A DNA stretch of 64,000 bases from Turneriellaceae bacterium (lineage in GTDB: Bacteria; Spirochaetota; Leptospiria; Turneriellales; JAOUFE01): NCBI GenBank assembly GCA_050304475.1, contig JBNLDQ010000003.1:143833-207832 (forward strand). The letters are read 5' to 3'. The position numbers were made by a program, and so were the translations under genes. The notes below the pieces were generated by a model that was not told the DNA's origin, did not search any database, and saw only the letters and a list, made by a program, of their open reading frames with translations. The first letter of the stretch is position 1; the number at the start of each line of letters is the position of its first letter. Below are positions 1,268 through 56,536 of this stretch, one piece after another.

Positions 1268-2251
1268 ATGCAAGCGGCATGGTATGAACAATACGGGCAA
1301 CCGAATGTTTTACAACTAAAAGAAATTCCGGTTCCCGCCCCGAAAGAAGATGAAGTATTACTGCAAGTTTACGCCGCCTCGATCAACTCTTCCGATTGGG
1401 AATTCTTAACGGGCAAGCCAATCTATACCCGCATCTGGGGTCTTTTGAAACCGAAAATCCATGTGCTTGGCTCAGACGTAGCCGGCGTTATCGTAAAAAC
1501 GGGAAAAAACGTAAAAAAATTCAAGGCCGGAGACGAAGTATTTGGCGACCTCTTCAACCACTGGGGCGGGTTTGCCGAGTACGCTTGCGCTCCCGAAAAC
1601 GCCCTCACCCGAAAACCGGAAAACGTCACTTTTACGGAAGCCGCCGCGCTCCCCCAATCGTCTCTCATCGCCTGGCAAGCCTTGCGCCGCTTAGACGAAA
1701 ACCTGAAAGACAAAAAACAGGTCAAAGGGCAAAAGCTGCTGGTGAACGGCGCCGGGGGCGGCGGAGGAACATTCGCCCTGCAACTGGCCAGACTATACGG
1801 GTACGAAGCGACTGGGGTAGACAATCGATGGAAACAAAAAACCATGCAAGCGGCCGGGGCCGAACATGTAATCGACTTTCGTAAAACCGATTGCACCAAA
1901 ACCGCAGAGCGGTATCATTTTATCCTGGACTTCGTCGGGCATCATTCAATTGGCGACTATAAAAAGATCTTAACCGATAACGGCCGTTACGTTATGGTGG
2001 GGGGCTCCGCGGGTAACATACTAAACACGCTTCTTTGCGGAAAATGGCTCTCAAAAACCACATCCAAAAAATTCGAGCTTCTTGCCCATGAAGCGAACAA
2101 AGGCATTGAATCCGTTTTAAAGCTTCTCGCGCAAAAAAAGATCAAGCCAATGATCGACCGGGTTTTTTCCCTGCAAGAAATACAAAATGCATTTCAATAT
2201 TTTGCCGAAGGCAAAGCGGGCGGAAAGCTGGTCATTCAAATTAAATCGTAA
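1268..2251 (+). CDS. Medium-chain dehydrogenase/reductase family oxidoreductase (NAD(P)H:quinone oxidoreductase / alcohol dehydrogenase-like)
   Basis: N-terminal GroES-like segment (LQLKEIPVPAPKEDEVLLQVYAASINSSD, GSDVAGVIVKTGKNVKKFKAGDEVFG) and a Rossmann glycine motif LLVNGAGGGGGTFALQLARLYG. Confidence 0.9.
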   Translation: MQAAWYEQYGQPNVLQLKEIPVPAPKEDEVLLQVYAASINSSDWEFLTGKPIYTRIWGLLKPKIHVLGSDVAGVIVKTGKNVKKFKAGDEVFGDLFNHWGGFAEYACAPENALTRKPENVTFTEAAALPQSSLIAWQALRRLDENLKDKKQVKGQKLLVNGAGGGGGTFALQLARLYGYEATGVDNRWKQKTMQAAGAEHVIDFRKTDCTKTAERYHFILDFVGHHSIGDYKKILTDNGRYVMVGGSAGNILNTLLCGKWLSKTTSKKFELLAHEANKGIESVLKLLAQKKIKPMIDRVFSLQEIQNAFQYFAEGKAGGKLVIQIKS

Positions 2252-2360
2252 CGGCAAAACTCCGCGGCAGATCATGCTTTACGCCTTGTGCGGGGTAAAT
2301 GCACAATGTCCGCAACAAGATAAATGCCATATAACCTTTTTCATAACTTCCCGCTTCGCC

Positions 2361-5225
2361 ATGCCAAACCCGATTATACAGAATAAAATCTACATTCCGC
2401 CGCCCGGCCAAAAAGCAATCATCCGATCAACTCTCATTGAACGTTTAAATGAAGGCCGGCATGGCAAACTGACCTTGATTTGCGCCCCCGCCGGTTACGG
2501 AAAATCCACGCTGATCAGCGAGTGGCTGACAGCTACCCGCACAGCGGCGTCCATGGTATCTCTTGATTCCGGCGATAACGATTTTGTCCGGTTCATGACC
2601 TATATGCTGGCGGCGGTCCGAAGCATCTTTCCCGAAAAGGGAGAACGGCTGATGGAAATTGCGCAAAACCAGGCGCCGCAAGCCGAGCCGATGGAAACCT
2701 TCATGGCCACCCTGATCCATGAATTAAATGAAATCGAAAAACCGTACGTGCTGGCGCTGGACGATTACCATGTCATTGAAAACCCGAAAATTAACGAAGC
2801 GGTCTCTTTTCTCATCGAACACCTGCCCTTCTCCATGCAACTGGCAATTTCAACCCGCGAAGAACCCGATTTACCCTTGGCTAAATTTCGGGCCAGGGGA
2901 CAATTAACGGAACTGCGGCCCAACGATTTGTGTTTCAACAAAACAGAGACCTCCCGGTTTTTTCTCAAAACCATGGGCCTGCACCTTTCCGAAAACGACA
3001 TTGAAGCGCTGGTCAACCGAACGGAAGGGTGGATTGCCGGGCTAAATCTGGCGGGAATCTCCATGCTGGCCGCAGACAACCCCCATGAGTTTGTTCTTTC
3101 TTTTGCAGGCAGCCACCACTTTGTCATGGATTATTTAATGGAAGAAGTTTTCCAAACGCAGCCCGAAACGGTTCAAAATTTTCTTTTGAGTACATCCATA
3201 CTAACGTCAATGTGCGGGCCGTTATGCGACGCCGTAATGGAATCGAACGCAGGGCAAGGGCAAGAGCTCCTGGAAAAATTAAACCAGGCAAATATGTTTC
3301 TGGTTCCCCTGGACAATGAACGAAAATGGTACCGTTACCACCATCTCTTTCATGACCTTCTGCGGCAAAGGCTTCGCAAGAAGACCGAGCCCGAGTCCCC
3401 CCAAACTCCGAATCCCCTGGAACATGCACCCGAAATAACCGGAAAAAAAACAAACCGCAAATTCGATTTGCCGAACCTGCATTTGCGCGCCGGCAAGTGG
3501 TATGAAAAAAACAACCGTTTTGCCGAAGCGTTCATTCACTCTCTCGAAGCCGGCGATACCGATAGAGCGGCAACCATGGCCCAAATCGGATACGCCGAAA
3601 TGGAAGCGGCATTTCAGCTGCCGGCATGGCTGGAACTGGTAAAAAAATTACCGAAAGAAAATCTTTATCATCACCCCTTCTTGTGCTACCAGTATGCGGC
3701 CGCCTTAACCGACGTCGGAGAACTGGAAGCAAGCGAAGAGTGGTTAAATCATGCCCAGGAACGGATTGACAGCGAAAAAAGCCCTTCGCCAAACCCCGAA
3801 AGCTGGACCGCCTTGCGCGGCAATATCGCCCGCCAGCGAAGCCATAACGCGCAATCGCGCGGCGATATCCCTTCAACGATAAAGTACATCAAACAAGCCC
3901 TGCAACTCATGCCAGGCGACGATTACCTGGGGCATGGAGCGATGGAAGGCTCGCTGGGTTTGATCCACTGGGTCGACGGCAACTTACCGGCGGCAAAAGA
4001 GTCGTTTCAAAAAACGGTACGCTATTGGCAAAAAGCCGAAAACCTGAATTTTGAAATAGCGACCGGGTACGCCCTAGCCGACCTGGAAACGGCCTGCGGC
4101 AAACTGACCGGAGCGAGAGATATTTGTCACAAGTTGCTGCTCCTCGCCGATGAAAAAAAAGTCAAAGATTTGCATGGCGCGGGCCTGGTACACTTTCGCC
4201 TGGGGATGATTTACCACGAAATGGGCGAGACGGAAAAATCGGATATCCATCTCCGCATCAGCAAAGATATTGCCAACCGGTGTTCCTCGATTTATTGGCC
4301 CTGGATATGGAACCGGGGGCAGGCTATTATAATGGAATCCGCGGGAGAGATGGAAAACGCCTTGGAACGGTTGGAAGAAGCCAAACGCAAAGGAATACGA
4401 AGCTCCGAACCGAACTTGCGCCCCATGGAAGCGATGAAAGCGAAAATTTTTGTAAAAATGGGACGCTTGAAAAAAGCCATGGAATGGGTTGAAGAAAATC
4501 ATATTCCCGATCTGGAAATTTCATACCGGCATGAATTTGAGCTCCTCACTCTCGTCAGAATCACAAGAGAACAAATTACAAAAACGCCTGACGGCGCTAA
4601 CCTTGGTGGCAATATGTCAATCAACCGGGCTTTTCATTTGCTCGATAAACTTTTAGAAAGGGCAAAAAAAGAAAAAAGATACGGCAGCGTCATTGAAATC
4701 CTGGTGCAAAAAAGCCTGACCTGCTCTGCCGCCGGCGACTTTCCGGCGGCATTTGACGCCCTGACCCAGGCGCTGGAAATCGGAGAGCCCGAACGCTTTG
4801 CCCGCGTGTTCATTGACGAAGGTTTGCGCATGATGGAACTTCTGGCCCGACTCAATGATTTGCTCAAAGAGAATCCGGCCGAAGGGGTAGCGCCCGAAGT
4901 TAAAAAATATACCGGGCACCTGCTTTCTTTTTTTCAAAAACAACCCCGGCAAGAAATACCGGCGGTCAAAAGTTCGCCAAAAAAATCAATACGCAATGTA
5001 GAAACGCCGGCTCCCGCATTGGTAGAGCCGTTAAGCGACCGTGAAGTTGAAGTGTTGCATCTTGTCGCGTCCGGGCTTTCCAATAAAGAAATCGGCGATC
5101 GCCTTTCTTTGGAACTCAATACGATCAAGGGTCACAACCGCAATATCTTCAGCAAACTGGGCGTCCGAAGAAGAACCGAAGCCGTTGCCCGCGCCCGCCA
5201 ACTCGGTTTACTATCTGGCCTTTAA
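2361..5225 (+). CDS. MalT-like large ATP-binding LuxR-family transcriptional regulator (LAL/STAND type)
   Basis: Walker A CAPAGYGKST and Walker B-like VLALDDYH. A long helical/TPR-like middle region. C-terminal LuxR HTH: LSDREVEVLHLVASGLSNKEIGDRLSLELNTIKGHNRNIFSKLGV. Start placed at ATG 2361 (MPNPIIQNKIYIPPPG, like MalT N-termini), which avoids overlap with the upstream gene. Confidence 0.9.
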   Translation: MPNPIIQNKIYIPPPGQKAIIRSTLIERLNEGRHGKLTLICAPAGYGKSTLISEWLTATRTAASMVSLDSGDNDFVRFMTYMLAAVRSIFPEKGERLMEIAQNQAPQAEPMETFMATLIHELNEIEKPYVLALDDYHVIENPKINEAVSFLIEHLPFSMQLAISTREEPDLPLAKFRARGQLTELRPNDLCFNKTETSRFFLKTMGLHLSENDIEALVNRTEGWIAGLNLAGISMLAADNPHEFVLSFAGSHHFVMDYLMEEVFQTQPETVQNFLLSTSILTSMCGPLCDAVMESNAGQGQELLEKLNQANMFLVPLDNERKWYRYHHLFHDLLRQRLRKKTEPESPQTPNPLEHAPEITGKKTNRKFDLPNLHLRAGKWYEKNNRFAEAFIHSLEAGDTDRAATMAQIGYAEMEAAFQLPAWLELVKKLPKENLYHHPFLCYQYAAALTDVGELEASEEWLNHAQERIDSEKSPSPNPESWTALRGNIARQRSHNAQSRGDIPSTIKYIKQALQLMPGDDYLGHGAMEGSLGLIHWVDGNLPAAKESFQKTVRYWQKAENLNFEIATGYALADLETACGKLTGARDICHKLLLLADEKKVKDLHGAGLVHFRLGMIYHEMGETEKSDIHLRISKDIANRCSSIYWPWIWNRGQAIIMESAGEMENALERLEEAKRKGIRSSEPNLRPMEAMKAKIFVKMGRLKKAMEWVEENHIPDLEISYRHEFELLTLVRITREQITKTPDGANLGGNMSINRAFHLLDKLLERAKKEKRYGSVIEILVQKSLTCSAAGDFPAAFDALTQALEIGEPERFARVFIDEGLRMMELLARLNDLLKENPAEGVAPEVKKYTGHLLSFFQKQPRQEIPAVKSSPKKSIRNVETPAPALVEPLSDREVEVLHLVASGLSNKEIGDRLSLELNTIKGHNRNIFSKLGVRRRTEAVARARQLGLLSGL

Positions 5226-5251
5226 AAAAAACGCAAACCACACCCGAATCC

Positions 5252-5296
5252 CGCAGACAACGACACTTTAGTGTCTTGCGCCTTTTCCTGTTTTTG
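5252..5296 (+). terminator. Weak candidate terminator after the LuxR-family gene
   Basis: Core stem GACAC / GTGTC with TTTA loop and imperfect flanking pairing, followed by the T-rich CCTTTTCCTGTTTTTGTG. Confidence 0.3.
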
Positions 5297-5321
5297 TGCT
5301 ATCTTCTGCGCTATGCAAAGC

Positions 5322-5344
5322 CGCGGTAAGAACTTCTTACCGCG
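5322..5344. promoter_or_regulatory. Perfect inverted repeat (candidate operator or 5' leader hairpin) upstream of the TonB-dependent receptor gene
   Basis: CGCGGTAAGAA c TTCTTACCGCG: 11-bp arms around 1 central nt, 55 nt upstream of ATG 5399. Confidence 0.4.
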
Positions 5345-5398
5345 CGATGCGACAAAAACAAAAGGCAAATAAAAACAAAGGACTGCAAGGAATATCCT

Positions 5399-7870
5399 AT
5401 GAAACTGATAATGAAAATAAAAAATATACGATACGGTATCTTGATGCATGGCATTTTCTGGGGCATGGGCATTGCCCCCATTGCATTCACTGCATTAGGA
5501 CTAACGTCCCAACTGCAAGCGCAAGAAAACCCGGAATATACGCTGCAAGGGCAGGTATCGGATCCAATGGGCGATCCTCTTGAATTTGCGACTATTGCCA
5601 TTGTCGAATTAAAACAAAAAACCGAAATCGGCGAAAACGGCGCATATGCGATCCGCCTGCCCGCAGGCGAATATACCGTAATTGTCAGCTCGCCCGGGAT
5701 GAAACCCCACCGGGGCACGCTTCAATTGAGTCAAGATCAAACGCTTGATATTGTTTTGGAACCTCACACCATTGGCGGCTCTTCCGTTACAATCGAAGGA
5801 GAACGCGATATCCAGAAGATTTCGCGTTATACGATGGCGAAAGAAGAGATGAAAAATGTACCGGCCTCTTTCGGCGACTCTTTAGGGGCCATTGCAACCA
5901 TGGCGGGGATCGAGCAAAACGGTTTGTTTGGCTCGATGGCGATCCGGGGGCTTGGCGCCACCGAACACCGGTTTTATGTCGACGGCGTTCCTATCCGCGA
6001 ACCCCGGCATTTCGGAGCGCTGCATAGCATCATCAATAACGAAGTTGTTCAAGAAATCGACATCTACTCGTCCGCTTTCCCGGTCGAGTACGGAGCCCCG
6101 ATCGGCTCGGTCTTGCAGTTCAACACCGTCGACCAGGTTGACAAAAGAGAAATCTATGCCGACCTGAGTCTGCTTTCGTTAAATGCCACCATACTCTCTC
6201 CGATTCGCAAACCGGATAGCTCCTCTTCAAACGCAAAAACAGCCGGGTACTGGATCATTGGCGGACGTTACGGGTACACGTCGCTTTTTGCCCCGGCGTT
6301 GGTGAAAGCGATGACAGGCGACGACGGCATTGAGTTTCATAACATTTATTACGACTACCAATTCAAAGGCAAATATTTTCTCAACAAAGACCATTCCATC
6401 ACCATGCTCCTTTTCGGGGGCTACGATAGCGCCACGTTAGACGGCAAGATGCGCGTAAAGACAAAAGAAGAGCTCATTGACGAAGGCGCCGACCCGTTCT
6501 CGCTCGATATGTACGGCCATTTTGACAACAGCTATCACTCTCAATCAATCACCTGCACCTATTTCCCTTCGGACAAATTAAAAAACGAAATGAAACTCTA
6601 TACTTCGCTCAACGAATTGAATATGCATTGGCTTTACAAATCAAAAGAAGTGGCCGAATGGGGCAAAGGAACGACAATCTCGACAGACCCGAATATTTAC
6701 GGTATCAAAGACGATCTTTACCTGGACCTTTTTGATCAAGTCTATTTGATCAAAGCCGGGGCTGATCTCACCTATTACGACTTCAAAGCCTCGGGGAACA
6801 CCATTGTACCGGCCGCTCAAAATACATGGTATATTGACACGCCTGACCCGGCAGACCCCGACCTCTATACCCTTGCCGAAATTTCACAAAGCGCCGTGAA
6901 CAACACTCTTGGCGGTTACCTTGAAAACCGGGTAAACTACCAAGGCCTGACCGTCGCAGGAGGATTTCGGACAGACTATTTAAAAACGCAAAATCAAACG
7001 ATTTTCGACCCGAGAGGGCGCGCCTCGTATACGGCCCCAACGGAAACGACCATATCCGTCGCGGGGGGCCAATACAGCTCCTTTTTTCAAACCAACGTCT
7101 ACTATTTTGAATACCTCCCCCAGATCTTTGAACTGGATTTAAAACCGGAAAGAGCGGTTCACCGTTCCGCCGCCATCGAGCAACGGTTCCTGGAAAAATA
7201 TACCATTACGCTCGAAGGCTACATGAACGACTTTTCCGACCTGGTTCAGGTCGGGGCCAAGCCGAATGTTCTCGCCTCAAATCTGGGCGAAGCGCGAACC
7301 AGGGGCGTAGAGATCACGGTAAAAAAAGACAAAATAACCCGCAAACTCGACTACTACGGCTGGATGAATTATACATACGGGATTTCGGAACAAAAGTCGC
7401 ACCGCCCCGCCGACCCGTTGGGCGAAAAGTGGATTTCGGGCGATTTTGACCGGCGCCACTCCCTGAAAGCCGTAAGCGGGATCCGCTATGGCGCCAGCCT
7501 GTTGGGTCTGCGTTTTCAATATTACAGCTCTTACCCGGAAACGCCCATTGTCGGCGATGACGGGGGAGTTGCCTATACGCTGAGCGGCAGCGCGAACCCG
7601 AATCGCATCCGGTACGCTCCCGCCTATGGCGATAAAAATTCCAGGTTTCGTTCCCCCCAGCACCAACTGGATGTCCGCTTTTCTCGCACGTCGCAATACA
7701 AGTGGGGTTCGTTAAACTGGTACGTCGAAGTCATCAACATCTATAACTTTAAACCGGACGACACCCAGGAGTGGGCATACAACAAACCGTACAGCGACAA
7801 CAACCCGAGTTACGGGAGCAGCGCGGATTTTGCCTTCTTGCCAAACTTCGGAGTCGAAGCAAAATTTTAA
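5399..7870 (+). CDS. TonB-dependent outer-membrane receptor with an N-terminal carboxypeptidase-regulatory-like domain
   Basis: Signal-like N-terminus. CarboxypepD_reg-like segment (GQVSDPMGDPLEFATIAIVE...YAIRLPAGEYTVIVSSPGM). Plug-like segment (VPASFGDSLGAIATMAGIEQNG...MAIRGLGATEHRFYVDGVPI). Long beta-rich barrel ending in the terminal ...FGVEAKF. Confidence 0.9.
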   Translation: MKLIMKIKNIRYGILMHGIFWGMGIAPIAFTALGLTSQLQAQENPEYTLQGQVSDPMGDPLEFATIAIVELKQKTEIGENGAYAIRLPAGEYTVIVSSPGMKPHRGTLQLSQDQTLDIVLEPHTIGGSSVTIEGERDIQKISRYTMAKEEMKNVPASFGDSLGAIATMAGIEQNGLFGSMAIRGLGATEHRFYVDGVPIREPRHFGALHSIINNEVVQEIDIYSSAFPVEYGAPIGSVLQFNTVDQVDKREIYADLSLLSLNATILSPIRKPDSSSSNAKTAGYWIIGGRYGYTSLFAPALVKAMTGDDGIEFHNIYYDYQFKGKYFLNKDHSITMLLFGGYDSATLDGKMRVKTKEELIDEGADPFSLDMYGHFDNSYHSQSITCTYFPSDKLKNEMKLYTSLNELNMHWLYKSKEVAEWGKGTTISTDPNIYGIKDDLYLDLFDQVYLIKAGADLTYYDFKASGNTIVPAAQNTWYIDTPDPADPDLYTLAEISQSAVNNTLGGYLENRVNYQGLTVAGGFRTDYLKTQNQTIFDPRGRASYTAPTETTISVAGGQYSSFFQTNVYYFEYLPQIFELDLKPERAVHRSAAIEQRFLEKYTITLEGYMNDFSDLVQVGAKPNVLASNLGEARTRGVEITVKKDKITRKLDYYGWMNYTYGISEQKSHRPADPLGEKWISGDFDRRHSLKAVSGIRYGASLLGLRFQYYSSYPETPIVGDDGGVAYTLSGSANPNRIRYAPAYGDKNSRFRSPQHQLDVRFSRTSQYKWGSLNWYVEVINIYNFKPDDTQEWAYNKPYSDNNPSYGSSADFAFLPNFGVEAKF

Positions 7871-7936
7871 GAATGCAACCAGGCGGACTTTACGCCCGCA
7901 AACTTCCCGCAAACTTAGTAAGGAGAAAATGAAAAC

Positions 7937-8740
7937 ATGAAAAAAGCACTTGGTATAAAAGTTTTAATCGCATTGTGGGCGCTAACCCAGTTTCATCTGC
8001 ATGCAACGGAAACGACAAAAGAGACGCCAACGGAAATCGAAACCAAAGCGGCGGCAGAGCCTGTAACGGAAACGGCAACGACAACGGAAACTGCCCGGAA
8101 AACCGATCCAGAAACCGGAACAAACCCGGGCGACTTCCCCGTCTCCGAAAAAGATGAGATTGAGACGGGGTTTGAAAACGGGGCGAGCCCCCGTTCCGAA
8201 AATCTCTTTTCCGTTATTCAACAGGGCGGCTGGGTCATGTTCTTTCTTTTAGGAATGCTCCTTTTAGGGATGACCCTGGTCGGAGAGCGGTGCATCTATT
8301 ACGTCGCCCACAAGTCCTGGGAAAAGGCCCCGCTCGAAAAACATCTATATAATACGTTTCAAATGAGCGGCGCAAAATACAAAGAAGAGATGGAAACCGA
8401 TCTGCGCGGGCATCTTCAACTCTACTTCAATCGCCTGGAAAAGAGCCTCAACCTGATTCACGGCATCGGAAATCTGGCGCCGCTGATCGGATTTTTCGGA
8501 ACGGTCATTGGTATGATCCGGGCTTTTGCCGCCATTGCTTCGGCAGCCGTTGTGAATGCCAAGGTTGTCGCCGTGGGCATTCAAATGGCGCTGGTGACGA
8601 CAGCCGGTGGTCTTGCCGTCGCGGTTTTAACTCTTTCTTTTTATCACTTGTTTTCTCATATCGTGCAGTCGCAGTACGCCTTTTCGGATGAAGTCATTCA
8701 AACGCTCGTGGGCAAACTGCCGCCATATTCGGAGAAGTAA
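7937..8740 (+). CDS. exbB: MotA/TolQ/ExbB-family proton channel with a T/E/P-rich N-terminal extension
   Basis: GGWVMFFLLGMLLLGMTLVGERCIYY and LIHGIGNLAPLIGFFGTVIGMIRAFAAIA are typical ExbB/TolQ TM2-TM3 signatures. Confidence 0.9.
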   Translation: MKKALGIKVLIALWALTQFHLHATETTKETPTEIETKAAAEPVTETATTTETARKTDPETGTNPGDFPVSEKDEIETGFENGASPRSENLFSVIQQGGWVMFFLLGMLLLGMTLVGERCIYYVAHKSWEKAPLEKHLYNTFQMSGAKYKEEMETDLRGHLQLYFNRLEKSLNLIHGIGNLAPLIGFFGTVIGMIRAFAAIASAAVVNAKVVAVGIQMALVTTAGGLAVAVLTLSFYHLFSHIVQSQYAFSDEVIQTLVGKLPPYSEK

Positions 8741-8743
8741 CCC

Positions 8744-9184
8744 GTGAACTTCATCCAAAACCCCTGGCTGGCGAAACCGAAAGCAATACGAAAGACAATG
8801 CTTCATACCGAAATGGAAACATCCGCAATCGGAGATATGGCTTTTTTGCTGCTGATCTTTTTTATTGTAACCAGTTCATTTTTAATGAGAATGGGGATTT
8901 TTCTCTCATTGCCTTCGGACTCGGGGGGAGCCATAAAGGTCGAAAAGAAACAGCTTTTCGAGATCACCCCGCTAGGCAACGGTTATCTGGTAGACCAAAA
9001 CCGGGTAACCGGCCTTGAGGCATTGGAACTTTTACGGCAAAAAAAAGAATCGCAAAACAATCTCATTTATGTAGTATACATGAACCCATCGTTAAAATAC
9101 GAGCGGCTGATTGACGCCCTTTCCCTGGCCGGAAAGGCGGGCGTTCAAAACATTTCGGTTAAAGATAAAGTAAAAGATAAATAA
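8744..9184 (+). CDS. exbD: ExbD/TolR-family biopolymer transport protein
   Basis: GTG start 4 nt after the exbB stop. Single TM IGDMAFLLLIFFIVTSSF followed by a periplasmic domain. Confidence 0.85.
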   Translation: MNFIQNPWLAKPKAIRKTMLHTEMETSAIGDMAFLLLIFFIVTSSFLMRMGIFLSLPSDSGGAIKVEKKQLFEITPLGNGYLVDQNRVTGLEALELLRQKKESQNNLIYVVYMNPSLKYERLIDALSLAGKAGVQNISVKDKVKDK

Positions 9185-9185
9185 G

Positions 9186-9569
9186 ATGCGAAAGATCAGC
9201 GTAAAACCGGTCACAGTAGGGGCCGCCATGGCCGACATGGCAATGCTTTTGCTGGTATTTTTTATGACGACGACTACCACCGAACCGCCCGCCGGCGTCG
9301 ACGTTGAACCGCCTTCCGGTTATGTTCAGCCGGCCGAGCAAGAGAGTCTGTATATTACCGTCTCGACAGAGGGCGCGCTTTATTGCGACGGGCAAGCGGT
9401 AACCATGCAAGCTTTACGCAATATATTGGCTTTCCGGGCGCATGAAAAAGAGACGCCTGTTTCAATTACCGCCGACAAAAACCTCGATTACGGCATTGTC
9501 TCGGGTTTGCTGAAAACATTACAGCAAAGCGGATTTTTAAATGTCACTTTTATGGCTGAAGAAAAATGA
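9186..9569 (+). CDS. exbD: ExbD/TolR-family biopolymer transport protein (second copy)
   Basis: MADMAMLLLVFFMTTTTT TM segment and ExbD-like periplasmic domain (PVSITADKNLDYGIVSGLLKTLQQSGF). Confidence 0.85.
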   Translation: MRKISVKPVTVGAAMADMAMLLLVFFMTTTTTEPPAGVDVEPPSGYVQPAEQESLYITVSTEGALYCDGQAVTMQALRNILAFRAHEKETPVSITADKNLDYGIVSGLLKTLQQSGFLNVTFMAEEK

Positions 9570-10225
9570 TGGAAATGATACATAGAACGAGCCGCCGCAT
9601 AGGCTTTGCGCTTTTGCGCAGGTGCGTTAAAAACGTGAAAGCAGAGACAAAAAATCACCCGCAAGCAATATCATTTTGCTTCTCGGCGATAGCCATGATT
9701 TTTGTTTTGTTTTATTCCCCGTCAGACAAAGCGGTAAAAGACCGCGACATCGCCAATGCGTTTCGCATGGTCAATATCGAGAAAATCGCTTTACCGAAAA
9801 GAAAGACAAAAAAACAGATCGACGTAAACGCGGAAAAAGAGACGGTTCCCGATGAGACCGAACGCGCCGAAGGGTTGAGCGAGTCCGAAGACGCGGTAGA
9901 CCTCTCTTTTTTTCCGAATGTTGTCCCCCCTCGCCCGGTCGGAAAACTGCAAAAAATTTACCCGGAAGAGGCGCGCCGGCGCGAGGTAGAAGCGACAGTC
10001 TACGTCAGATTGTTGATCGGTAAAAAGGGCGAAGTACAAACGGCGCAAGTGTTAGCCACCCATTTGAGCAAATCTCTCCCCCAGGATGCAGCCGAAACGC
10101 TAAAGGCAAAGTTTGCCGGGGCCGCCGTGAAAATATTACAAAATGCAAGATTCAGCCCGCCCATTGTCGACGGGAAACATGTATCTATTGTAATGGAGAT
10201 GCCGTTAAAATTTGAGTTAAATTAA
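9566..10225 (+). CDS. tonB: TonB-family energy transducer (C-terminal TonB domain)
   Basis: ATGA overlap with the upstream exbD. One N-terminal TM and a charged linker. C-terminal PPRPVGKLQKIYPEEARRREVEATVYVRLLIGKKGEVQTAQV...FSPPIVDGKHV is typical of the TonB C-terminal domain. Confidence 0.8.
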   Translation: MMEMIHRTSRRIGFALLRRCVKNVKAETKNHPQAISFCFSAIAMIFVLFYSPSDKAVKDRDIANAFRMVNIEKIALPKRKTKKQIDVNAEKETVPDETERAEGLSESEDAVDLSFFPNVVPPRPVGKLQKIYPEEARRREVEATVYVRLLIGKKGEVQTAQVLATHLSKSLPQDAAETLKAKFAGAAVKILQNARFSPPIVDGKHVSIVMEMPLKFELN

Positions 10226-10251
10226 ACGAAATGACAGCCGTTTTTTGTCGC

Positions 10252-11127
10252 TCATGCATGATCATAAAAAGCCAACACTTCGGCAGCCCTTTGCGAAACA
10301 AAGGCGCTGCCTTCTTTTTTCGCCAACGGAATGATTGTGTTGTTTATTTTTCTTTCAAGATCCCAGCCGGCGTTGGGCTTGCGCTTGCTTCGCAACAGGT
10401 CAAGCGCCCTGCTTAACCGTATCTCTTTTACATTTTCTCTTTTCAGCAGCCACAAAATTTCAAGAAAATCGGATTGATACATATTCGGGAAAGTCAGCTT
10501 TTTAATGTTCGTATGCAGAAAGTTTGATTTTTCATGAGAAGAAAAACAAACCTCATGGCGCAAAATAAAATCAATGCAATTGCCCAGCAAACGCTGCGCG
10601 CTCTTTGTTCTGTTTTTGCGCGGAACAAATGATAAACCTTTCAGAAGTTTTACAACCCCCCAAAAACAGGTATGCCTGCCATAGCAACTCCGGTTAGAGT
10701 AATAAGGAGCGCCGGCCGGGGTTTTATAATCGCCGTCATCAAACCGTTGGTACAAAACAAAAAAATCAATCGCCTTGTTTACCGTTTCGGTCTGGTTCAT
10801 CTTAAAATATTGCAGCAGATAAATCATATTGCCATTTAAACACGGGATCGGAAAATGAGATTTGCCTATCGTAAAAATATTGTTTTTTTGATCGTAAAAA
10901 TGGTTTGCAATGGCTGTTAGCGGTTTTTTTAGTTTTTCATTTTCGGCCGGGCTTTGTATGTCGGCAAGAAAAATCAGGGTCCAAAGTGTGGCGCTATAGA
11001 CAGGGCTGTAGTGCTTAAACCCGGGGTACCCCTTCTCTTTTTCGTTGAGCACATTCCAGCAACCCGTTTCATCTTGCAATTTTATAATATCATTAGTGAT
11101 TTTTTCAATAAGAGAGTTCAGGTCCAT
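10252..11127 (-). CDS. Alpha/alpha-toroid-like (squalene-cyclase / prenyltransferase repeat-like) protein of unknown function
   Basis: N-terminal LQDETGCW fits the QW motif Q-x3-G-x-W, and C-terminal KPNAGWDL is a related repeat. Regularly spaced aromatic-rich helices (ATLWTLIFLADI, NGNMIYLLQYF, AIDFFVLYQRF, CFWGVVKLLKGL, SDFLEILWLLK). The functional assignment is tentative. Confidence 0.6.
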   Translation of the reverse strand: MDLNSLIEKITNDIIKLQDETGCWNVLNEKEKGYPGFKHYSPVYSATLWTLIFLADIQSPAENEKLKKPLTAIANHFYDQKNNIFTIGKSHFPIPCLNGNMIYLLQYFKMNQTETVNKAIDFFVLYQRFDDGDYKTPAGAPYYSNRSCYGRHTCFWGVVKLLKGLSFVPRKNRTKSAQRLLGNCIDFILRHEVCFSSHEKSNFLHTNIKKLTFPNMYQSDFLEILWLLKRENVKEIRLSRALDLLRSKRKPNAGWDLERKINNTIIPLAKKEGSAFVSQRAAEVLAFYDHA

Positions 11128-11265: not shown

Positions 11266-12066
11266 TCATCCCTTTAACAAGGGCAACGCATTCATAAAAA
11301 CCGCCCCCGTAAGCCACGTTGTAACAAATACTACAATCGCGCCGCTTACCGGGAAAAAACTTTGAGCCGTTGTTACGGCGCCGGCTTCAACCATATGGCT
11401 TACGACAAGGCCCGAGATACTCATGCAAAGGGTCAGGTAAAAAAGAGAAACCGCCAACCCAACGGCCCGGGGGCGTGTACGCAGGTAAAATATAAGCGGG
11501 CGATATGGCGCTTTGGCGTAGAGCCGGGACAGAAAAGCTTCTCCGTCTTTTTGCGGGAAAGGGAGCAGCGCATAGAGAGCAATGAAATCAATGGCAATCA
11601 TGGCCGCAATGGCAGGCGCGGTGGCAGGCCCGCCAAAGGCATAGCCAAAGGAAGCTGAAAGCGATGCAAAGAGCAGTTGAAAAAAAACGCCCGCCAACGG
11701 CAGGGTTACCGGTAGCATCGTATTTGTTTCCGTGTCTATCCGATATGACGAGATTGCGAACAGTTGAAAACCCTTCAGACAGATCATCGCTCGGTGGTCC
11801 TTGCGGTAGACGGAAGCAACGATATGACCCAACTCATGAACATACATTGAAATGATAATGAGCCCGGTCACGAGCAAGCCGGACAAAATAGAGCCCTCCA
11901 TGATACCGGCAAAGTGAACCCGAGACAGGAGATAACATTGTACGGCAACCGCCAGCGCAAGAAGAGGGGCGATCCTGTATTTTTGCAGCCAGGGCGAAAC
12001 CACGGGATAATAGCGAGATGGGTTTTGCAGCAAAAAAAGAATTTTTATCGTTTTATCGCTCATCAA
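11266..12066 (-). CDS. Polytopic membrane zinc metalloprotease, M50 / site-2-protease-like (candidate leader peptidase)
   Basis: HExxH within a TM helix (ISMYVHELGHIVASVY) and a downstream LLPFPQKDGE resembling the S2P NxxPxxxLDG motif. Six or more hydrophobic segments. Confidence 0.75.
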   Translation of the reverse strand: MMSDKTIKILFLLQNPSRYYPVVSPWLQKYRIAPLLALAVAVQCYLLSRVHFAGIMEGSILSGLLVTGLIIISMYVHELGHIVASVYRKDHRAMICLKGFQLFAISSYRIDTETNTMLPVTLPLAGVFFQLLFASLSASFGYAFGGPATAPAIAAMIAIDFIALYALLPFPQKDGEAFLSRLYAKAPYRPLIFYLRTRPRAVGLAVSLFYLTLCMSISGLVVSHMVEAGAVTTAQSFFPVSGAIVVFVTTWLTGAVFMNALPLLKG

Positions 12067-12094: not shown

Positions 12095-13552
12095 TCAACA
12101 AGCCTGCGAGCCCGCCTCTATAAAGCCTTTTTTAGCGCCTTTAGTCTCTTTGCAAGAGCAGCTCTTTCCTTTTTTCTCTTGCTTTTTCTCAAGCAGATGT
12201 TCGGCTTCTAAAAAAAGGTCGGGCGCTTTTGCCTGGAACGTTTCTTTAAATTCAAAACAGTGCGGCGCATTTAATTTACCGGAAGCCAACTCAGCCTGAT
12301 GAGCGCACCCGCCGGCGCAAAGAAAAATATATTCGCACTCCAGGCATTCGGGAATCGAAGCGGCGTCCCGCCCTTCCCATTCCTTGAGTCTTTCTTCCCC
12401 CAGGTTAAAATCAGGGTGGTAGAAACCGGTTTTGCGCTCCTGTACGCCAAGCTCGTCCCAGCAAGAGTAGATATTTCCGTCTGCGGCAAAAATGTACGTG
12501 TTCCGGTGCGCGCCGCACGGGTTCGCCTTAAGACCGGGGAACTTTGCATTTGAAAAGAGCAACGACTTGAAAACACCCAAAGAAGCAAAGCCGGTAGAGA
12601 GCATATTGGGTAAAATTTTTTCCCCCAGGCCTTCTATTGTTTTCTGCAAGCTCATCGGTGTAACGCGTTTTTTAGTCGCGGTTGCAGTGTGGGTGGGGTG
12701 CGCATATGGGCGGAAAAATTCATACTTATACCAACCTTGAGAAACATAAAACCGGTGCAGTTCTTCCAGTTTTTCGATATTATTGCTATCGACATTGCTT
12801 CGGACCGATACACTGCATCCTTTTTTAAGGGCAAGGTCGATGCCGTTACACACTTGTTGAAAAGATTTGCTCTTCTTTACGCCATAGCGCCGGTTGTCAT
12901 GAACTTCTTCGGGGCCATCCAGAGTAACCTGCATCGACCGGATTTTATCTTTACCCAAAAGATCTTCGTAATGCGGCAGGTCAACGCCGTTGGTTACGGC
13001 AAAAAAAGAAAACCCCAGAGAGTTCCCTTTTTCGAGAATATACTTTACCAGCTCATGATTCTCCGCCATCAAGGGTTCGCCGCCATACAGGGTAATTGTC
13101 TTTTCATGCTTCCGGTATTTTTTTGTTAGCCCGGTAATCGCTTTAAACATAGAGTCAACATGGGCTTTTGTCATCGTCTGGCGTTTTTCTTCGACGTTTT
13201 CCCGGATCACGGGTTTTTCATAACAATAGCTGCACCGCAGTTGGCACCCCAATGTCGGGGCGATAATGAAACCGGTCGTCTTTTGCGAACTTTGGTTGAG
13301 AAGCGTTGATATTTTTTTTACCAGCGCTTGCTCTTCGGAAACGCTTTTAGAAGTCAAATACCCGCGGGTAACCAGTTGCTTGACGGTACTCGGGTCAAGA
13401 TCATCCGGGCTATCGTTTTGAAGCGACTCCAGCACGGCAATATCCACCTTATCTACCGCGCCGGAATAGCCCTGGATCAAAACTCCGAATTTTTTTTGAA
13501 GCACAGGCGTATAGATATTATACGAGCTGGCTCGAAGCGCACTTACCTTCAT
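12095..13552 (-). CDS. Radical SAM / SPASM-domain peptide maturase
   Basis: CxxxCxxC cluster motif (GCQLRCSYC). GGEPL motif (LYGGEPLM). Complete SPASM pattern C-x12-G-x4-C (CGAHRNTYIFAADGNIYSC) then C-x2-C-x5-C-x3-C (CLECEYIFLCAGGC) with a later Cys (PHCFEF). About 95 aa of N-terminal extension before the rSAM core, RRE/PqqD-like in position. Confidence 0.9.
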   Translation of the reverse strand: MKVSALRASSYNIYTPVLQKKFGVLIQGYSGAVDKVDIAVLESLQNDSPDDLDPSTVKQLVTRGYLTSKSVSEEQALVKKISTLLNQSSQKTTGFIIAPTLGCQLRCSYCYEKPVIRENVEEKRQTMTKAHVDSMFKAITGLTKKYRKHEKTITLYGGEPLMAENHELVKYILEKGNSLGFSFFAVTNGVDLPHYEDLLGKDKIRSMQVTLDGPEEVHDNRRYGVKKSKSFQQVCNGIDLALKKGCSVSVRSNVDSNNIEKLEELHRFYVSQGWYKYEFFRPYAHPTHTATATKKRVTPMSLQKTIEGLGEKILPNMLSTGFASLGVFKSLLFSNAKFPGLKANPCGAHRNTYIFAADGNIYSCWDELGVQERKTGFYHPDFNLGEERLKEWEGRDAASIPECLECEYIFLCAGGCAHQAELASGKLNAPHCFEFKETFQAKAPDLFLEAEHLLEKKQEKKGKSCSCKETKGAKKGFIEAGSQAC

Positions 13553-13573: not shown

Positions 13574-14053
13574 CTAATCAATGTCGACCAGAAGATCGTT
13601 TACGCCAATACCGATTTCACCGGGCTGCAAGCCGGTATTTGACGTCAATTGCTCTTCAAGCTCGGCCCATTTTTTATCTTTGCGGGCTTGTATCATTTTT
13701 TTCTTGTCATTGACCCTGGTAAAAGAAAGGTACAGCGGGGTCGGCCTGTCAAGGTTAGAGCTTTTTTTCACCAACCGGTAGACGCTGACCGAATCGATCC
13801 CTTCTTCATTGTCCAACCATGCAAGCGCATCGTTTACGGCTTTTTCCGTTTGAACCCTGTCGCCCTGTTTCGGGCTGATGGGCGTAATCACGGTAAAAGG
13901 GGTGAGATGCAAGACATCGCCGAGATCTTCCTTAATTTGCTTTTTCGCCGCCTGGCGGCTCTCTTCGTATACTTTTCTTTTTTTGGTCTGCCCTTCTTCT
14001 TTGTGAAGATTGAGGTGTTTGGTAATTTTATCAATGCGCTCTTTTCGTGCCAT
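13574..14053 (-). CDS. Hypothetical protein (159 aa), distant paralog of the 14511..14984 product
   Basis: Start moved to ATG 14053, which has SD AAGGA 7 nt upstream. The longer 14203 start would overlap the precursor gene by 98 nt. Lys-rich N-terminus. By-eye similarity to the 157-aa neighbour. Confidence 0.7.
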   Translation of the reverse strand: MARKERIDKITKHLNLHKEEGQTKKRKVYEESRQAAKKQIKEDLGDVLHLTPFTVITPISPKQGDRVQTEKAVNDALAWLDNEEGIDSVSVYRLVKKSSNLDRPTPLYLSFTRVNDKKKMIQARKDKKWAELEEQLTSNTGLQPGEIGIGVNDLLVDID

Positions 14054-14105
14054 ATTATTTTCCTTAATTATAAATGATGATTGCCAATTGTTTGCGCTTT
14101 TAACG

Positions 14106-14468
14106 TCAGCTGGAAGCCATAAAGCAATCGCTGCCGCAACTGCCAAAATCGACATAACATTGTGTGCCGCATTGCGAGCATATGTCACCAATGGCGCATG
14201 CATCGGCCGTACAGTTCGTTACGCAATCGGACATGCAAGAGCAGTCCATCATACATGAGAGGTCCATGCTACATCCGGTCGCAGTCGATGTTAAGCTGCC
14301 GGCCTCATCCGAAAAATCCAGGGGACAACTCGTGCTGATCGGTTCGATGCGCAATTGCGTTTGTTGAGAATCCCCGGAATCGAGCATTTGTTCAAGCTGC
14401 TCAACGCTGACATTGTCAAATAATGTTTTGTTTAACGGTTTTAATTGATTTTCGTTTTTCTTTTCCAT
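14106..14468 (-). CDS. Cysteine-rich RiPP precursor-like peptide (120 aa; 13 Cys in the C-terminal 73 residues; C-x-x-D/N repeats)
   Basis: SD GAAGGA 7 nt upstream of the ATG. Cys-free leader-like N-terminus MEKKNENQLKPLNKTLFDNVSVEQLEQMLDSG. Core SCPLDFSDEAGSLTSTATGCSMDLSCMMDCSCMSDCVTNCTADACAIGDICSQCGTQCYVDFGSCGSDCFMASS. Lies two genes upstream of the rSAM/SPASM gene. Confidence 0.8.
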   Translation of the reverse strand: MEKKNENQLKPLNKTLFDNVSVEQLEQMLDSGDSQQTQLRIEPISTSCPLDFSDEAGSLTSTATGCSMDLSCMMDCSCMSDCVTNCTADACAIGDICSQCGTQCYVDFGSCGSDCFMASS

Positions 14469-14510
14469 TCTTAATCCTTCGTTAATCGTTTGTTGCCGGT
14501 AATTCTGTCG

Positions 14511-14984
14511 TTAAATTAAACCTAGCAATGTTCCGTTGACAACAGATTGACCGTCGTCCATTTTTTTCTTCTCCGAACAAAGGGCCGAAATTTGTTTTTC
14601 AATTTGCGACAAGTTCGGGCTATTGGCCGCTTTTTTCATCGCGCCCCGGTGGCGTGCAATAATGATCATGACCAACTCGGGCTCTGCAAGCCGGTTGTTT
14701 TTCCCTTCATTCACCTTCTCATAGAGCATGACATAGTTAATGCTCTTTTCTTGTTCAAGAATAGCAACCGCCTCAACAAGCAAATCGAGAACATCTTGTT
14801 TTTTACCGTCAAGTGGCTGAAACGGCCACTTGTAAAAAACGGGAGATTTTTCCAGAATAAATTCGTAATCTTTTTTAATCTCCTTTGCGGTCTCTATTTT
14901 CGCTTCTTTGATAAAATCATCAAAACCGGGTTTACCGCGGTAATTGTCGATTTGCGTTTTTATGGTTTGCGCGTAGTCCTGCAT
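14511..14984 (-). CDS. Hypothetical protein (157 aa), first gene of the operon, distant paralog of the 13574..14053 product
   Basis: SD GGAGG 4-5 nt upstream of the ATG. No recognisable motif. Confidence 0.75.
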   Translation of the reverse strand: MQDYAQTIKTQIDNYRGKPGFDDFIKEAKIETAKEIKKDYEFILEKSPVFYKWPFQPLDGKKQDVLDLLVEAVAILEQEKSINYVMLYEKVNEGKNNRLAEPELVMIIIARHRGAMKKAANSPNLSQIEKQISALCSEKKKMDDGQSVVNGTLLGLI

Positions 14985-15412
14985 AGACCCTCCGAAATTA
15001 TTAACATTTATCTACGAAAGTGCTGTGTCTTTGCGGGTAAAAACAAAGACATACCAGATTTGACCAAGAGTTAAAAAAAAGAAAACATTTTAATACGTAT
15101 TTTGTTATTATTTCTGCGTATCATTTTACTTTTATCTTTAACTATATCGCTGTTGATATCATATTGGCATTAATCATAGACTGAGGATATATTTATCATC
15201 CCCCTGTGCCGGCACAACATTAATTTTAAAATTTATTAAATCCTTAGGAAAAAGAGTAAAAATGTCAATTTTTCTATTATAGTTTTAGAATTGCAGAATT
15301 GGCAAAGTTTCTCATTTGTGCCAGGCTGTGCCCGGCTGCAAAACGCACTCAAAATGGAGGAGGCCCGCCAGGCGTTTGAGAAATACTACGCGATTTCCGC
15401 GGGATCGTTTTT

Positions 15413-54973: not shown

Positions 54974-56536
54974 TTAAATGGATCTGTCGTACTGATCAAA
55001 AGTCAGGTTCCAGACTTTCACGCCGCAATAGCGCGGGCCCTCAGGGCACCTCGGCTTCATTGATTTGCGCAAAACGCAAGGCGGACCAAGCATGCCCTCA
55101 AGAAAAGGATGTTCCCGGATAACTTGCTTTACCTCTTCAAGACTCGAGTAGAATATCTCTTCTTGCGCCGTATAGCAAAGTCTTGATTTCCATTTATGAA
55201 AGAAATTCATTAAATCGCCCGATTCGTAAAACCGTACCGGAAAAGCGTTGGGTAACAAATAGGTCAACCTTTGAGCCGGTACGCCCTCTCCCGCCAGCCG
55301 TTTTATTTCGGAAAATTGCTCTTCCATGTAGCTTTCGTACGCGGCTTTGATTTTATCGTTCTGTTGAATCAAGCCGGGGATAATATAATCGGGCTCCAGA
55401 GATACTTGCCTGAATAACAACGGTCTTGAACCCGGCAAGGTTCGATGCCGTTGCTCTTGCGAATCTGCCGTATGAGATAATTTTTTCTGAAACGTAAAAT
55501 GCACATGCTGAAATATCCTGCTTTGTTCGTCAAGCGTCACCGGGTAAAATGCGTCGCCTAACGCCGGGTTTGTATCCGTGCGGCATACGTCTTCAACTGA
55601 CGCGGTTTCTCCCCGAAAAGCTTTCAGCGTCTTCGATAAAAGTTCATACGAGTTTTCAGTCGAAGCGGCTAAGCGCGTTAATCCTCCCGCGTTTGCCAAC
55701 TCTTCGTCAAACGTTCGGTTTTGAATTTGAGCGGCGGCAAAATCGTGGCGAATTTCTTCCGCCGAATTTTCCAAAGGTTCGGGGACTTCCCGGATCAAAT
55801 CGGGGTCAACCCGGTCGACTTCAATCAACATCCGCAATGTAAGGGCGACGGCCTCATCCAGCCCGACGGACATCATCATTCGCGCATATCGGTAAAGGGT
55901 TAAGGCTGAAATCGTATGATACATATAGGCCGTCGTCGAAAGCGGCATCACATAACGCGAAATTTCCATCGCTCGTTTTAGAATATCTTTGCGGTAATGG
56001 TCGCGTTTGCTTTTACGGCCCCGGTAAATGGAATAATAAATTTCTTCAATCGCCGGCTCGAGCAGCTCGTTAAAATACCGGTACGCCTTCATGGCCCGTT
56101 CATGGTAGCGCTCGACGCCGGGGATATCGGCCAAATCGCCCCCCGCCGGCAATGAATACCAGTCACTCTCTTTGATTGATACGTAGCGCTGAGACACCTG
56201 CTCGGAATTATAATAAGGATGCGCATGCAGGAACTGCCAGATTAAATTACGGCTAACGCCCTGCAAACCAAACACAAAATGAGCGTGCTGGCGTGTGGTT
56301 AAATGGCCCGCTTCCATGGTAGATTCCGCAATTCTATCGCGCAACTCGCGGGCGCGCTCATCCTTATCCATCTCTTCGGGCATAATAATCCCTTTTGAGC
56401 TGTAACAGGTTCTGGCCGAAGCGATAGAGAGATTATAAGGAGATTGGTGCGAAGCAATCAGCCGGACTTTCATCCGGGGGTAGCGCTCTAACGCAGAGCC
56501 ATAACGATCAAGCAATCTTTTCAGAGCCCCGGACAC
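54974..56536 (-). CDS. Tandem-domain ThyX-like (FAD-dependent thymidylate synthase family) protein
   Basis: Two ThyX-like halves. Half 1: AGHLTTRQHAHFVFGLQG...WQFLHAHPYYNSEQVSQRYV. Half 2: HVHFTFQKKLSHTADSQEQRHRTLPGS...LMNFFHKWKSRL. The layout parallels the ThyX HxxFxF...RHR...S.RY pattern. Confidence 0.75.
   Translation of the reverse strand: MSGALKRLLDRYGSALERYPRMKVRLIASHQSPYNLSIASARTCYSSKGIIMPEEMDKDERARELRDRIAESTMEAGHLTTRQHAHFVFGLQGVSRNLIWQFLHAHPYYNSEQVSQRYVSIKESDWYSLPAGGDLADIPGVERYHERAMKAYRYFNELLEPAIEEIYYSIYRGRKSKRDHYRKDILKRAMEISRYVMPLSTTAYMYHTISALTLYRYARMMMSVGLDEAVALTLRMLIEVDRVDPDLIREVPEPLENSAEEIRHDFAAAQIQNRTFDEELANAGGLTRLAASTENSYELLSKTLKAFRGETASVEDVCRTDTNPALGDAFYPVTLDEQSRIFQHVHFTFQKKLSHTADSQEQRHRTLPGSRPLLFRQVSLEPDYIIPGLIQQNDKIKAAYESYMEEQFSEIKRLAGEGVPAQRLTYLLPNAFPVRFYESGDLMNFFHKWKSRLCYTAQEEIFYSSLEEVKQVIREHPFLEGMLGPPCVLRKSMKPRCPEGPRYCGVKVWNLTFDQYDRSI

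Follow-up and report, generated by a model that had tools for sequence, protein, structure and literature searches.

A rare ABM-fold protein family linked to radical SAM/SPASM clusters for cysteine-rich peptides and present as a diverged pair in a Turneriellaceae genome

A 64,000 nt stretch of contig JBNLDQ010000003.1 from a Turneriellaceae bacterium, here called the window, carries, all on the minus strand, genes for a protein A, a Cys-rich precursor peptide, a protein B, a radical S-adenosylmethionine (rSAM)/SPASM maturase and a polytopic membrane protein (Table 1). The original prediction, made from the letters alone, had picked out A and B as two mutually similar proteins bracketing the precursor gene and had recognised no family for either. 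The analysis reported here makes it very likely that both are members of a rare family dedicated to one narrow clade of rSAM/SPASM clusters that produce Cys-rich RiPPs (ribosomally synthesised peptides modified post-translationally).

Two diverged paralogues beside a precursor gene

The similarity of A and B had been proposed from an alignment made by eye. BLASTP placed the two proteins in the identical register, aligning A 27-134 with B 31-138 ungapped, with 24 identities in 108 positions (22%), 45% positives, a score of 33.5 bits and E = 3e-7. The Smith-Waterman score of the pair was 89, against 32 ± 5.5 for 5000 shuffles of B (z = 10.4); the highest shuffled score was 67, so that none of the 5000 reached that of the true pair. 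The pairwise statistics thus put the similarity far above chance and confirm it. Each protein was also compared by hhalign with a profile of the eight outside relatives described below, from which A and B were excluded. This gave a probability of 98.7% (E = 4.5e-16) for A and 99.0% (E = 3.9e-18) for B, both alignments starting in the second N-terminal helix and extending as far as the last residue. On sequence grounds, A and B are true, strongly diverged paralogues. Such a duplication had been called atypical for a gene flanking a RiPP precursor, and it is: every relative locus inspected has a single copy, and the order A-precursor-B was found in the window alone.

Shine-Dalgarno-like motifs, suitably spaced from the start codon, precede all three genes, GGAGG lying 5 nt upstream of the ATG of A and AAGGA preceding both the precursor start and the ATG of B at 14053. 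The mechanically defined open reading frame (ORF) of B extends 150 nt further upstream, to 14203, the extension beginning MHAPLVTYARN. A start at 14203 was rejected, since the added stretch runs over the precursor gene in a different frame and nothing in the homologues corresponds to it; the start at 14053, as originally assigned, is therefore taken as the real one. The spacer upstream of A (14985-15412, 428 nt) is AT-rich, with 35% GC, and contains a sigma-70-like promoter match (Table 1) and, right behind the preceding gene, a terminator-like hairpin. These features suggest that A is probably the first gene of the operon.

Table 1 Coordinates of the features of the cluster in the window and of accessory genes in related loci
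Feature	Position	Strand	Remarks
Sigma-70-like promoter match, TTGCCA-18-TATAAT	15276-15305	minus	11/12 consensus positions; consensus match only
Gene A	14511-14984	minus	157 aa; more diverged paralogue; rSAM-linked ABM-fold family
A, N-terminal two-helix extension (predicted), residues 4-46	14847-14975	minus	Lys/Glu-rich; AlphaFold2 helices 4-15 and 21-46; net charge -1
A, ABM/Dabb-like ferredoxin-fold core (predicted), residues 47-157	14514-14846	minus	AlphaFold2 and Foldseek
Precursor peptide gene	14106-14468	minus	120 aa; Cys-rich ORF between A and B
Gene B	13574-14053	minus	159 aa; second paralogue; ends 21 nt before rSAM gene start
B, N-terminal two-helix extension (predicted), residues 2-48	13910-14050	minus	basic, net charge +5; AlphaFold2 helices 2-18 and 22-48
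B, ABM/Dabb-like ferredoxin-fold core (predicted), residues 51-159	13577-13903	minus	AlphaFold2 and Foldseek
rSAM/SPASM maturase gene	12095-13552	minus	485 aa
Polytopic membrane protein gene	11266-12066	minus	266 aa; HELGH motif
Protein of unclassified family	10252-11127	minus	291 aa; cluster membership uncertain
DDxxD-like/toroid genes of relatives	L002:7376-8407 and 9209-10255; L004:6965-9088; L005:9748-11868; L089:3068-4075; L007:1900-3000		also in L092 and L093

Members, conservation and fold of the family

When A and B were used as queries in word-indexed homology searches of 5.8 billion proteins, they recovered nothing but themselves, and an exhaustive profile search was needed. HMMER, run with an A+B profile over 1.84 billion cluster representatives, found eight relative clusters (P0115-P0120, P0122 and P0123) with E values of 3e-17 to 2e-9, which together with A and B make ten members; the few other matches were false positives of low complexity that lie in very long proteins. 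Narrower family alignments, searched against a metagenome collection, gave no new locus and returned solely the contig of L004, one of the loci considered below. In a collection of 15 billion proteins those of the window are singletons, their only occurrences being one NCBI contig and Logan run SRR36185838, and the host appears to belong to a poorly sampled lineage.

Seven of the eight relatives are 156-172 aa long, and the remaining one, P0118 (115 aa), is truncated where its contig ends. Their identity to one another is 25-66%, compared with only 19-33% to A or B. The matches of both window proteins to the family profile reach from the helix extension through the core into the C-terminal motif G-x-N-x-x-L-x-G. 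Only Pro48, Pro54, Gly60, Tyr88 and Pro102 (A numbering) are invariant in all ten members. Close to invariant are a Trp that ends the first helix of the domain (nine of ten members; absent in A) and Asn150 and Leu153, which lie within the C-terminal motif G-x-N-x-x-L-x-G-I/L. The conserved polar or aromatic residues across the family are thus limited to the Tyr (Y88 in A, Y92 in B), the Asn (N150 in A, N152 in B) and, in nine members, the Trp. The eight relatives share in addition a Glu after the conserved Gly, a Ser, and a G-K-S-A-T-D-E-G loop, all three of which are missing from A and B. The last residue of the proteins is not conserved.

No model for the family was found when A, B and the relatives were scanned against Pfam and NCBIfam, in agreement with the original statement that none could be recognised. 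The fold, on the other hand, is recognisable, as an ABM/Dabb-type dimeric ferredoxin-like barrel with an N-terminal helix pair. AlphaFold2 single-chain models were used, that of A being built on the ten-sequence family alignment; the mean predicted local distance difference test (pLDDT) score was 76.9 for A, with a predicted template modelling (TM) score of 0.65, and 74.5 for B. The layout that the two proteins had been said to share holds in the models, which both run from two N-terminal helices through strand-helix-strand-strand-helix-helix to a C-terminal segment. The Lys/Glu-rich N-terminus corresponds to the two-helix extension, and the "conserved-looking middle" of the original description to the ABM core behind it, a ferredoxin-like beta-alpha-beta-beta-alpha-beta domain of about 100 residues in both models. 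In A the strands of this core are 49-55, 82-89, 104-110 and 147-150 and its helices 62-77, 113-120 and 123-135. In B the strands are 53-59, 86-93 and 108-114 and the helices 66-81, 117-124 and 127-139, so that the order of elements is that of A except in the C-terminal segment, where B has a short helix of low confidence in place of strand 147-150. The "short hydrophobic C-terminal tail" noted earlier exists as a region but is not a free tail, since it contains the conserved G-x-N-x-x-L-x-G-I/L motif and forms the last strand in the model of A. The pLDDT is low at the C-termini of these monomer models (A 140-157 and B 154-159). This could fit segments that are ordered only in an ABM dimer, and is compatible with a dimer rather than evidence for one.

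With A, a Foldseek search of the PDB at E <= 1e-3 gave 106 matches; with B it gave 48. The top listed matches, which span about 105 columns, belong to the ABM/Dabb group of small dimeric ferredoxin-like proteins. For A, the match to Rv0793 (1Y0H) had E = 3e-7 and a target-normalised TM-score of 0.79, and the scores to Rv0793, YE0340 and SnoaB ranged from 0.75 to 0.83; for B, the E values were 3.3e-5 with 4ZOS and 3.8e-5 with 1Y0H. Proteins of unknown or general function among the matches were Rv0793, YE0340 (4ZOS), MM_1583 (4DPO), YgiN and the poplar SP1 protein. Characterised enzymes were SnoaB (3KG0), the Passiflora hydroxynitrile lyase, olivetolic acid cyclase (OAC), methylmuconolactone isomerase, IsdI and the polyketide cyclase FasU. 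According to the models, A and B each consist of an N-terminal helix pair of about 45 residues followed by an ABM/Dabb-type ferredoxin-like domain of about 105 residues.

Sequence comparison did not reach this assignment. A sequence-profile search of the PDB returned no ABM protein, only chance matches such as troponin C and L18, and neither A nor B matched Pfam ABM (PF03992; gathering threshold 23.1 bits) at E <= 1. Among the ten members P0118 alone matched this model, with 21.4 bits and E = 2.8e-4, which is below the cutoff. The cores of A and B superimpose on Rv0793, YE0340, MM_1583, SnoaB and YgiN (1R6Y) with target-normalised TM-scores of 0.7-0.83, and a domain of about 105 residues is typical of the group. 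The differences are that these targets of about 100 residues lack the N-terminal two-helix extension, that they are only 8-21% identical to A and B in sequence, and that the A/B family was found only in rSAM RiPP clusters, apparently of anaerobes. The barrel dimer in A and B is predicted by analogy with them.

Linkage to related peptide clusters

Ten contexts outside the window, taken from the loci of the closest maturase homologues and from those of family members, were inspected (L002/L003, L004, L005/L006, L007, L087, L088, L089, L090, L092 and L093). In all ten, as in the window, the family gene lies directly upstream of either a Cys-rich precursor or an rSAM/SPASM maturase gene, with both of these nearby. 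In L087 it abuts the rSAM gene, and the precursor comes after a second rSAM gene. Homologues unlinked to rSAM or Cys-rich peptide genes would have spoken against the association originally proposed; every outside context proved to be linked.

The converse question was addressed by searching the six-frame ORFs of 80 genome loci, retrieved with an rSAM profile, with the family hidden Markov model (HMM) at E <= 1. The family gene was found in one of them, L007, a metagenome-assembled genome (MAG) of a Methanotrichaceae archaeon whose rSAM protein is 41% identical to that of the window. The scan found no member in the other 79, where the rSAM identity is 36% or less. The closest maturase homologues show 39-41% identity and are followed by a long tail at 38% and below. 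As it is absent from loci with a maturase identity of 36% or less, the family is, judged by these sequence comparisons, an add-on of one narrow clade and not a universal partner of this type of maturase.

In the precursor of the window a conserved leader (LKPLNKTLFDNVSVEQLEQML) is followed by a core of 73 residues, 13 of which are Cys. The leader aligns with those of precursors from related loci, L12, N13, E26 and L29 being invariant, and is followed after its helix by an insertion of about 16 residues. Precursors of the relatives have 66-82 aa, with the leader S-L-N-x-T-x-L-x-x-L-S-I-E-E-L-E-x-R-L-x-M-E-E and cores of 28-41 residues that contain 5-8 Cys, so that the window core is about twice as long. 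A junction E-M-W-T-G-C-G-C occurs in the precursors of nearly all ABM-containing relatives and is absent from the window precursor and from L094 and L095. The latter two loci do without an ABM-fold gene: L094 (8001-13164) retains a leader of the form S-L-N...L-S-I-x-E-L-E-x-R-L and has a cyclase-like protein, and L095 (8001-15429) has several Cys-rich precursors with a leader of the L-E-E-L-E-x-R-L type. The leaders carry net charges of -1 to -8 and 12 of 13 cores are acidic; the N-terminal extensions of the family proteins carry 0 to +5 in eight of the nine full-length members, A with -1 being the ninth. That a core of 73 residues and 13 Cys coincides with two ABM-fold genes is suggestive, yet anecdotal in view of L004, where a single ABM-fold gene goes with five precursors.

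The maturase matches Pfam Radical_SAM and Fer4_12, and the NCBIfam SPASM domain above its cutoff. Its best full-length models, Clo7bot (TIGR04334), the C-rich TIGR04463 and CefB (NF038107), fall far below their equivalog cutoffs, the best of them giving 125.8 bits where 600 are required. About 95 residues precede the CxxxCxxC motif. Sequence matches in the PDB are anSME and CteB, residues 104-236 of CteB aligning with 100-233 of the maturase. The window system thus resembles the Clo7bot, TIGR04463, CefB and PapB/CteB ranthipeptide and sactipeptide systems in having an rSAM + SPASM maturase and a Cys-rich substrate with a helical acidic leader. It differs from them in its accessory proteins, namely the ABM-fold proteins and an M50-like membrane protein, to which the relatives add a DDxxD protein and a cyclase-like toroid. 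In the full-text literature, coverage of which was incomplete, no paper was found that describes this combination of accessories, cyclase-like proteins together with SPASM maturases, or ABM or ferredoxin-like proteins tied to rSAM RiPP clusters.

The membrane protein has a HELGH (HExxH) motif and, later, P-x-x-x-DG (P-F-P-Q-K-DG), both read from the sequence and together characteristic of site-2 (M50) proteases. It is homologous to the equivalent gene product in L002, L004 and L005 (phmmer E 7e-14 to 2e-8), and the L002 homologue has a weak Pfam Peptidase_M50 match (E = 0.028, below cutoff). It is a candidate site-2-protease (M50)-like protein and might act as a leader peptidase or as an exporter partner.

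Further genes accompany the family in the relatives. A protein of 335-345 aa with a Y-Q-L-Y-D-D-I-x-D-W (DDxxD-like) motif occurs there together with a squalene-hopene-cyclase/prenyltransferase-like toroid; the two are fused in L004 and L005 (about 707 aa) and are separate genes elsewhere. Their presence suggests isoprenoid chemistry on the peptide. In the window no counterpart of either was detected. Downstream of the membrane protein, the 291-aa protein has a QW-like motif, LQDETGCW, but showed no significant similarity to the squalene-hopene-cyclase-like proteins of the relatives (hhalign probability 5%, no phmmer match), and scans for Pfam and NCBIfam models gave no match for it. A second rSAM gene (446-459 aa) overlaps the first and directly follows it in L004 (4246-5586), L005 (7368-8711) and L087 (1925-3304), while the window cluster has a single one.

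Possible roles of the A/B pair and the wider window

The role that we favour for A and B is the handling of the precursor peptide. The ABM/Dabb-type domain would dimerise into an alpha+beta barrel, as a homodimer in relatives with a single gene and as an A/B heterodimer in the window genome. The dimer would bind the precursor and hold or present it while the maturase installs thioethers or afterwards; leader and core, both acidic, would lie against the N-terminal helices, which are mostly basic, and against the cleft of the barrel. It would be a peptide-handling subunit, non-catalytic or at most weakly catalytic, and not an oxygenase. This mechanism of a heterodimeric barrel is put forward tentatively and, taken by itself, is somewhat less than probable; the explanation as a whole, family identity plus mechanism, falls just short of probable.

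Several observations favour peptide handling. The polar motifs shared by the eight relatives are gone from A and B, whose genes nevertheless stay intact, with ribosome-binding sites and in an intact operon; a binding surface fits this better than a fixed catalytic site does. The residues invariant in all members are structural (Pro and Gly), with the addition of one Tyr. The N-terminal helices are mostly neutral to basic, and the leaders and most of the cores acidic. The hosts, moreover, look anaerobic, given the Methanotrichaceae MAG, a pyruvate:ferredoxin oxidoreductase in the window and the O2-labile rSAM enzyme, and this makes O2-dependent ABM chemistry unlikely.

A number of points weigh against this role. 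The charge complementarity is weak, the extension of A itself having a net charge of -1. The loci L094 and L095, with 36%-identical maturases, are without an ABM-fold gene despite similar leaders, so that the family cannot be a general leader-recognition device. It is also plausible, because the N-terminal part of the maturase is as large as that of CteB before the aligned rSAM core, that the maturase has a built-in recognition domain of the size of a RiPP recognition element (RRE). The earlier idea of a leader-binding chaperone is weakened by both these clusters and this N-terminal domain of about 95 residues. The junction E-M-W-T-G-C-G-C shared by the relatives hints at a specific substrate feature. 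A patchy distribution is equally typical of tailoring enzymes and of immunity proteins, and characterised members of the ABM superfamily from biosynthetic clusters are mostly enzymes, SnoaB, OAC and FasU among the Foldseek matches. Finally, A and B were not resolved as sisters in a neighbour-joining tree of the family, whose branches are long and poorly supported and which does not discriminate a recent, local duplication from other histories; an alignment of only ten sequences accounts for this, as it does for the moderate pLDDT of the models.

A clade-specific tailoring enzyme is unlikely on balance. In this case the family would catalyse a cofactor-independent step (isomerisation, cyclisation, decarboxylation or oxidation) on the rSAM-modified peptide, with A and B forming a catalytic + non-catalytic heterodimer or being two enzymes that act on different sites of the long core. 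The proteins would then resemble the ABM enzymes of polyketide pathways, and methylmuconolactone isomerase and hydroxynitrile lyase stand beside SnoaB, OAC and FasU among the matches, whereas A and B have no sequence match to Pfam ABM. Cofactor-free ABM oxygenases use residues of the types Tyr, Asn and Trp, and Tyr88, Asn150 and, in nine of ten members, a Trp are conserved in the family. These are few polar residues, however, and A and B lack the Glu, the Ser and the loop motif of the relatives, A also lacking the Trp. Tailoring steps are typically confined to some sub-clade among related clusters, as the family is, and the E-M-W-T-G-C-G-C junction would suit such a step, being present in nearly all ABM-containing relatives and missing in L094 and L095, the loci without the family. 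The window precursor is without this junction and two copies of the protein are kept nonetheless, even if its doubled core length goes along with the doubled gene. The anaerobic-looking hosts count specifically against oxygenase chemistry.

Self-immunity or sequestration of the product, in which cytoplasmic A and B would bind the mature peptide or its target and the copies would have evolved fast along with the product, is improbable. It would explain why both genes adjoin the precursor gene and are co-transcribed with it, as in many bacteriocin-immunity pairs, and why A and B have diverged fast (20-25% identity to all other sequences, against 25-66% among the relatives) in a family with few conserved residues and a patchy distribution. 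A secreted peptide, on the other hand, usually needs immunity at the level of the envelope, and inspection by eye of the sequences and models revealed no signal peptide or membrane segment. L004 has a single ABM-like gene for five different precursors, and the family gene usually heads the operon, upstream rather than downstream of the precursor. The suggestion that A and B are additional long-leader precursors, with the folded domain as the leader and a modified C-terminal tail, can hardly be upheld. They are positioned where precursors sit, and about 15 C-terminal residues are of low confidence in the models; long enzyme-derived leaders do occur in other RiPP classes, for example the NHLP and Nif11 types. 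The C-termini are, however, conserved in the G-x-N-x-x-L-x-G-I/L motif and not hypervariable, strand 147-150 completes the fold in the model of A, and conservation does not extend to the last residue. There is one Cys in A and no Cys in B, compared with 5-13 in genuine cores, and the leader shared by the precursors is absent from both.

A likeness of A and B to PqqD-like RRE proteins is one of functional analogy only: both are small accessory proteins encoded beside a precursor and an rSAM gene, and candidate peptide binders. An assignment of A and B as RRE proteins was rejected. RRE proteins are winged helix-turn-helix domains with a three-stranded sheet, while the models of A and B are ferredoxin-like, and Pfam and NCBIfam gave no PqqD/RRE match. 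An N-terminal domain as large as an RRE is, besides, already present in the maturase of the window, and clusters with similar leaders manage without the family. A bolder reading, which is rather doubtful, is that the clusters represent an undescribed class of RiPP in bacteria and methanogenic archaea with either oxygen-independent chemistry by an ABM-fold dimer, in the window a heterodimer arisen by duplication, on a thioether-crosslinked, Cys/Trp-rich peptide or a core-recognition module that is independent of the RRE. From the DDxxD and squalene-hopene-cyclase-like proteins of the relatives, a peptide-terpenoid hybrid would be a possible product of this class.

The analysis turns two "hypothetical proteins" into a defined, testable family of about ten sequence clusters in the databases searched, and the peptide system to which it belongs spans bacteria and at least one methanogen-related archaeon. 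Small unannotated accessory proteins are the hardest parts of RiPP pathways to interpret, and these pathways are mined for enzymes and antibiotics. If A and B bind the peptide, they would constitute a substrate-handling module unrelated to the RRE; if they are enzymes, peptides under anoxic conditions would be added to the scope of ABM chemistry. The duplicated pair offers a natural experiment on heterodimerisation and subfunctionalisation. As clusters without the ABM-fold gene, L094 and L095 are useful natural "minus" controls. With its great rarity and no known product, the family will in the near term matter only to specialists in RiPPs and ABM proteins.

An Rfam scan of the whole window found no family reaching its gathering score. 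Beside the cluster, on the plus strand (2187-10225), library scans identified a 1012-aa MalT-like AAA/TPR/LuxR regulator and an 823-aa TonB-dependent receptor, and three small ORFs and a 219-aa ORF between 7937 and 10225, on the same strand, resemble ExbB/ExbD/TonB by eye. It is possible that these genes are linked to regulation or uptake of the peptide product. At 54974-56536 on the minus strand, a 520-aa ORF, about twice the usual length of ThyX, contains two stretches matched to ThyX (Thy1). The gene content of the window (TonB/ExbBD, a chemoreceptor, the pyruvate:ferredoxin oxidoreductase and ThyX) suggests a Gram-negative anaerobe or microaerophile.

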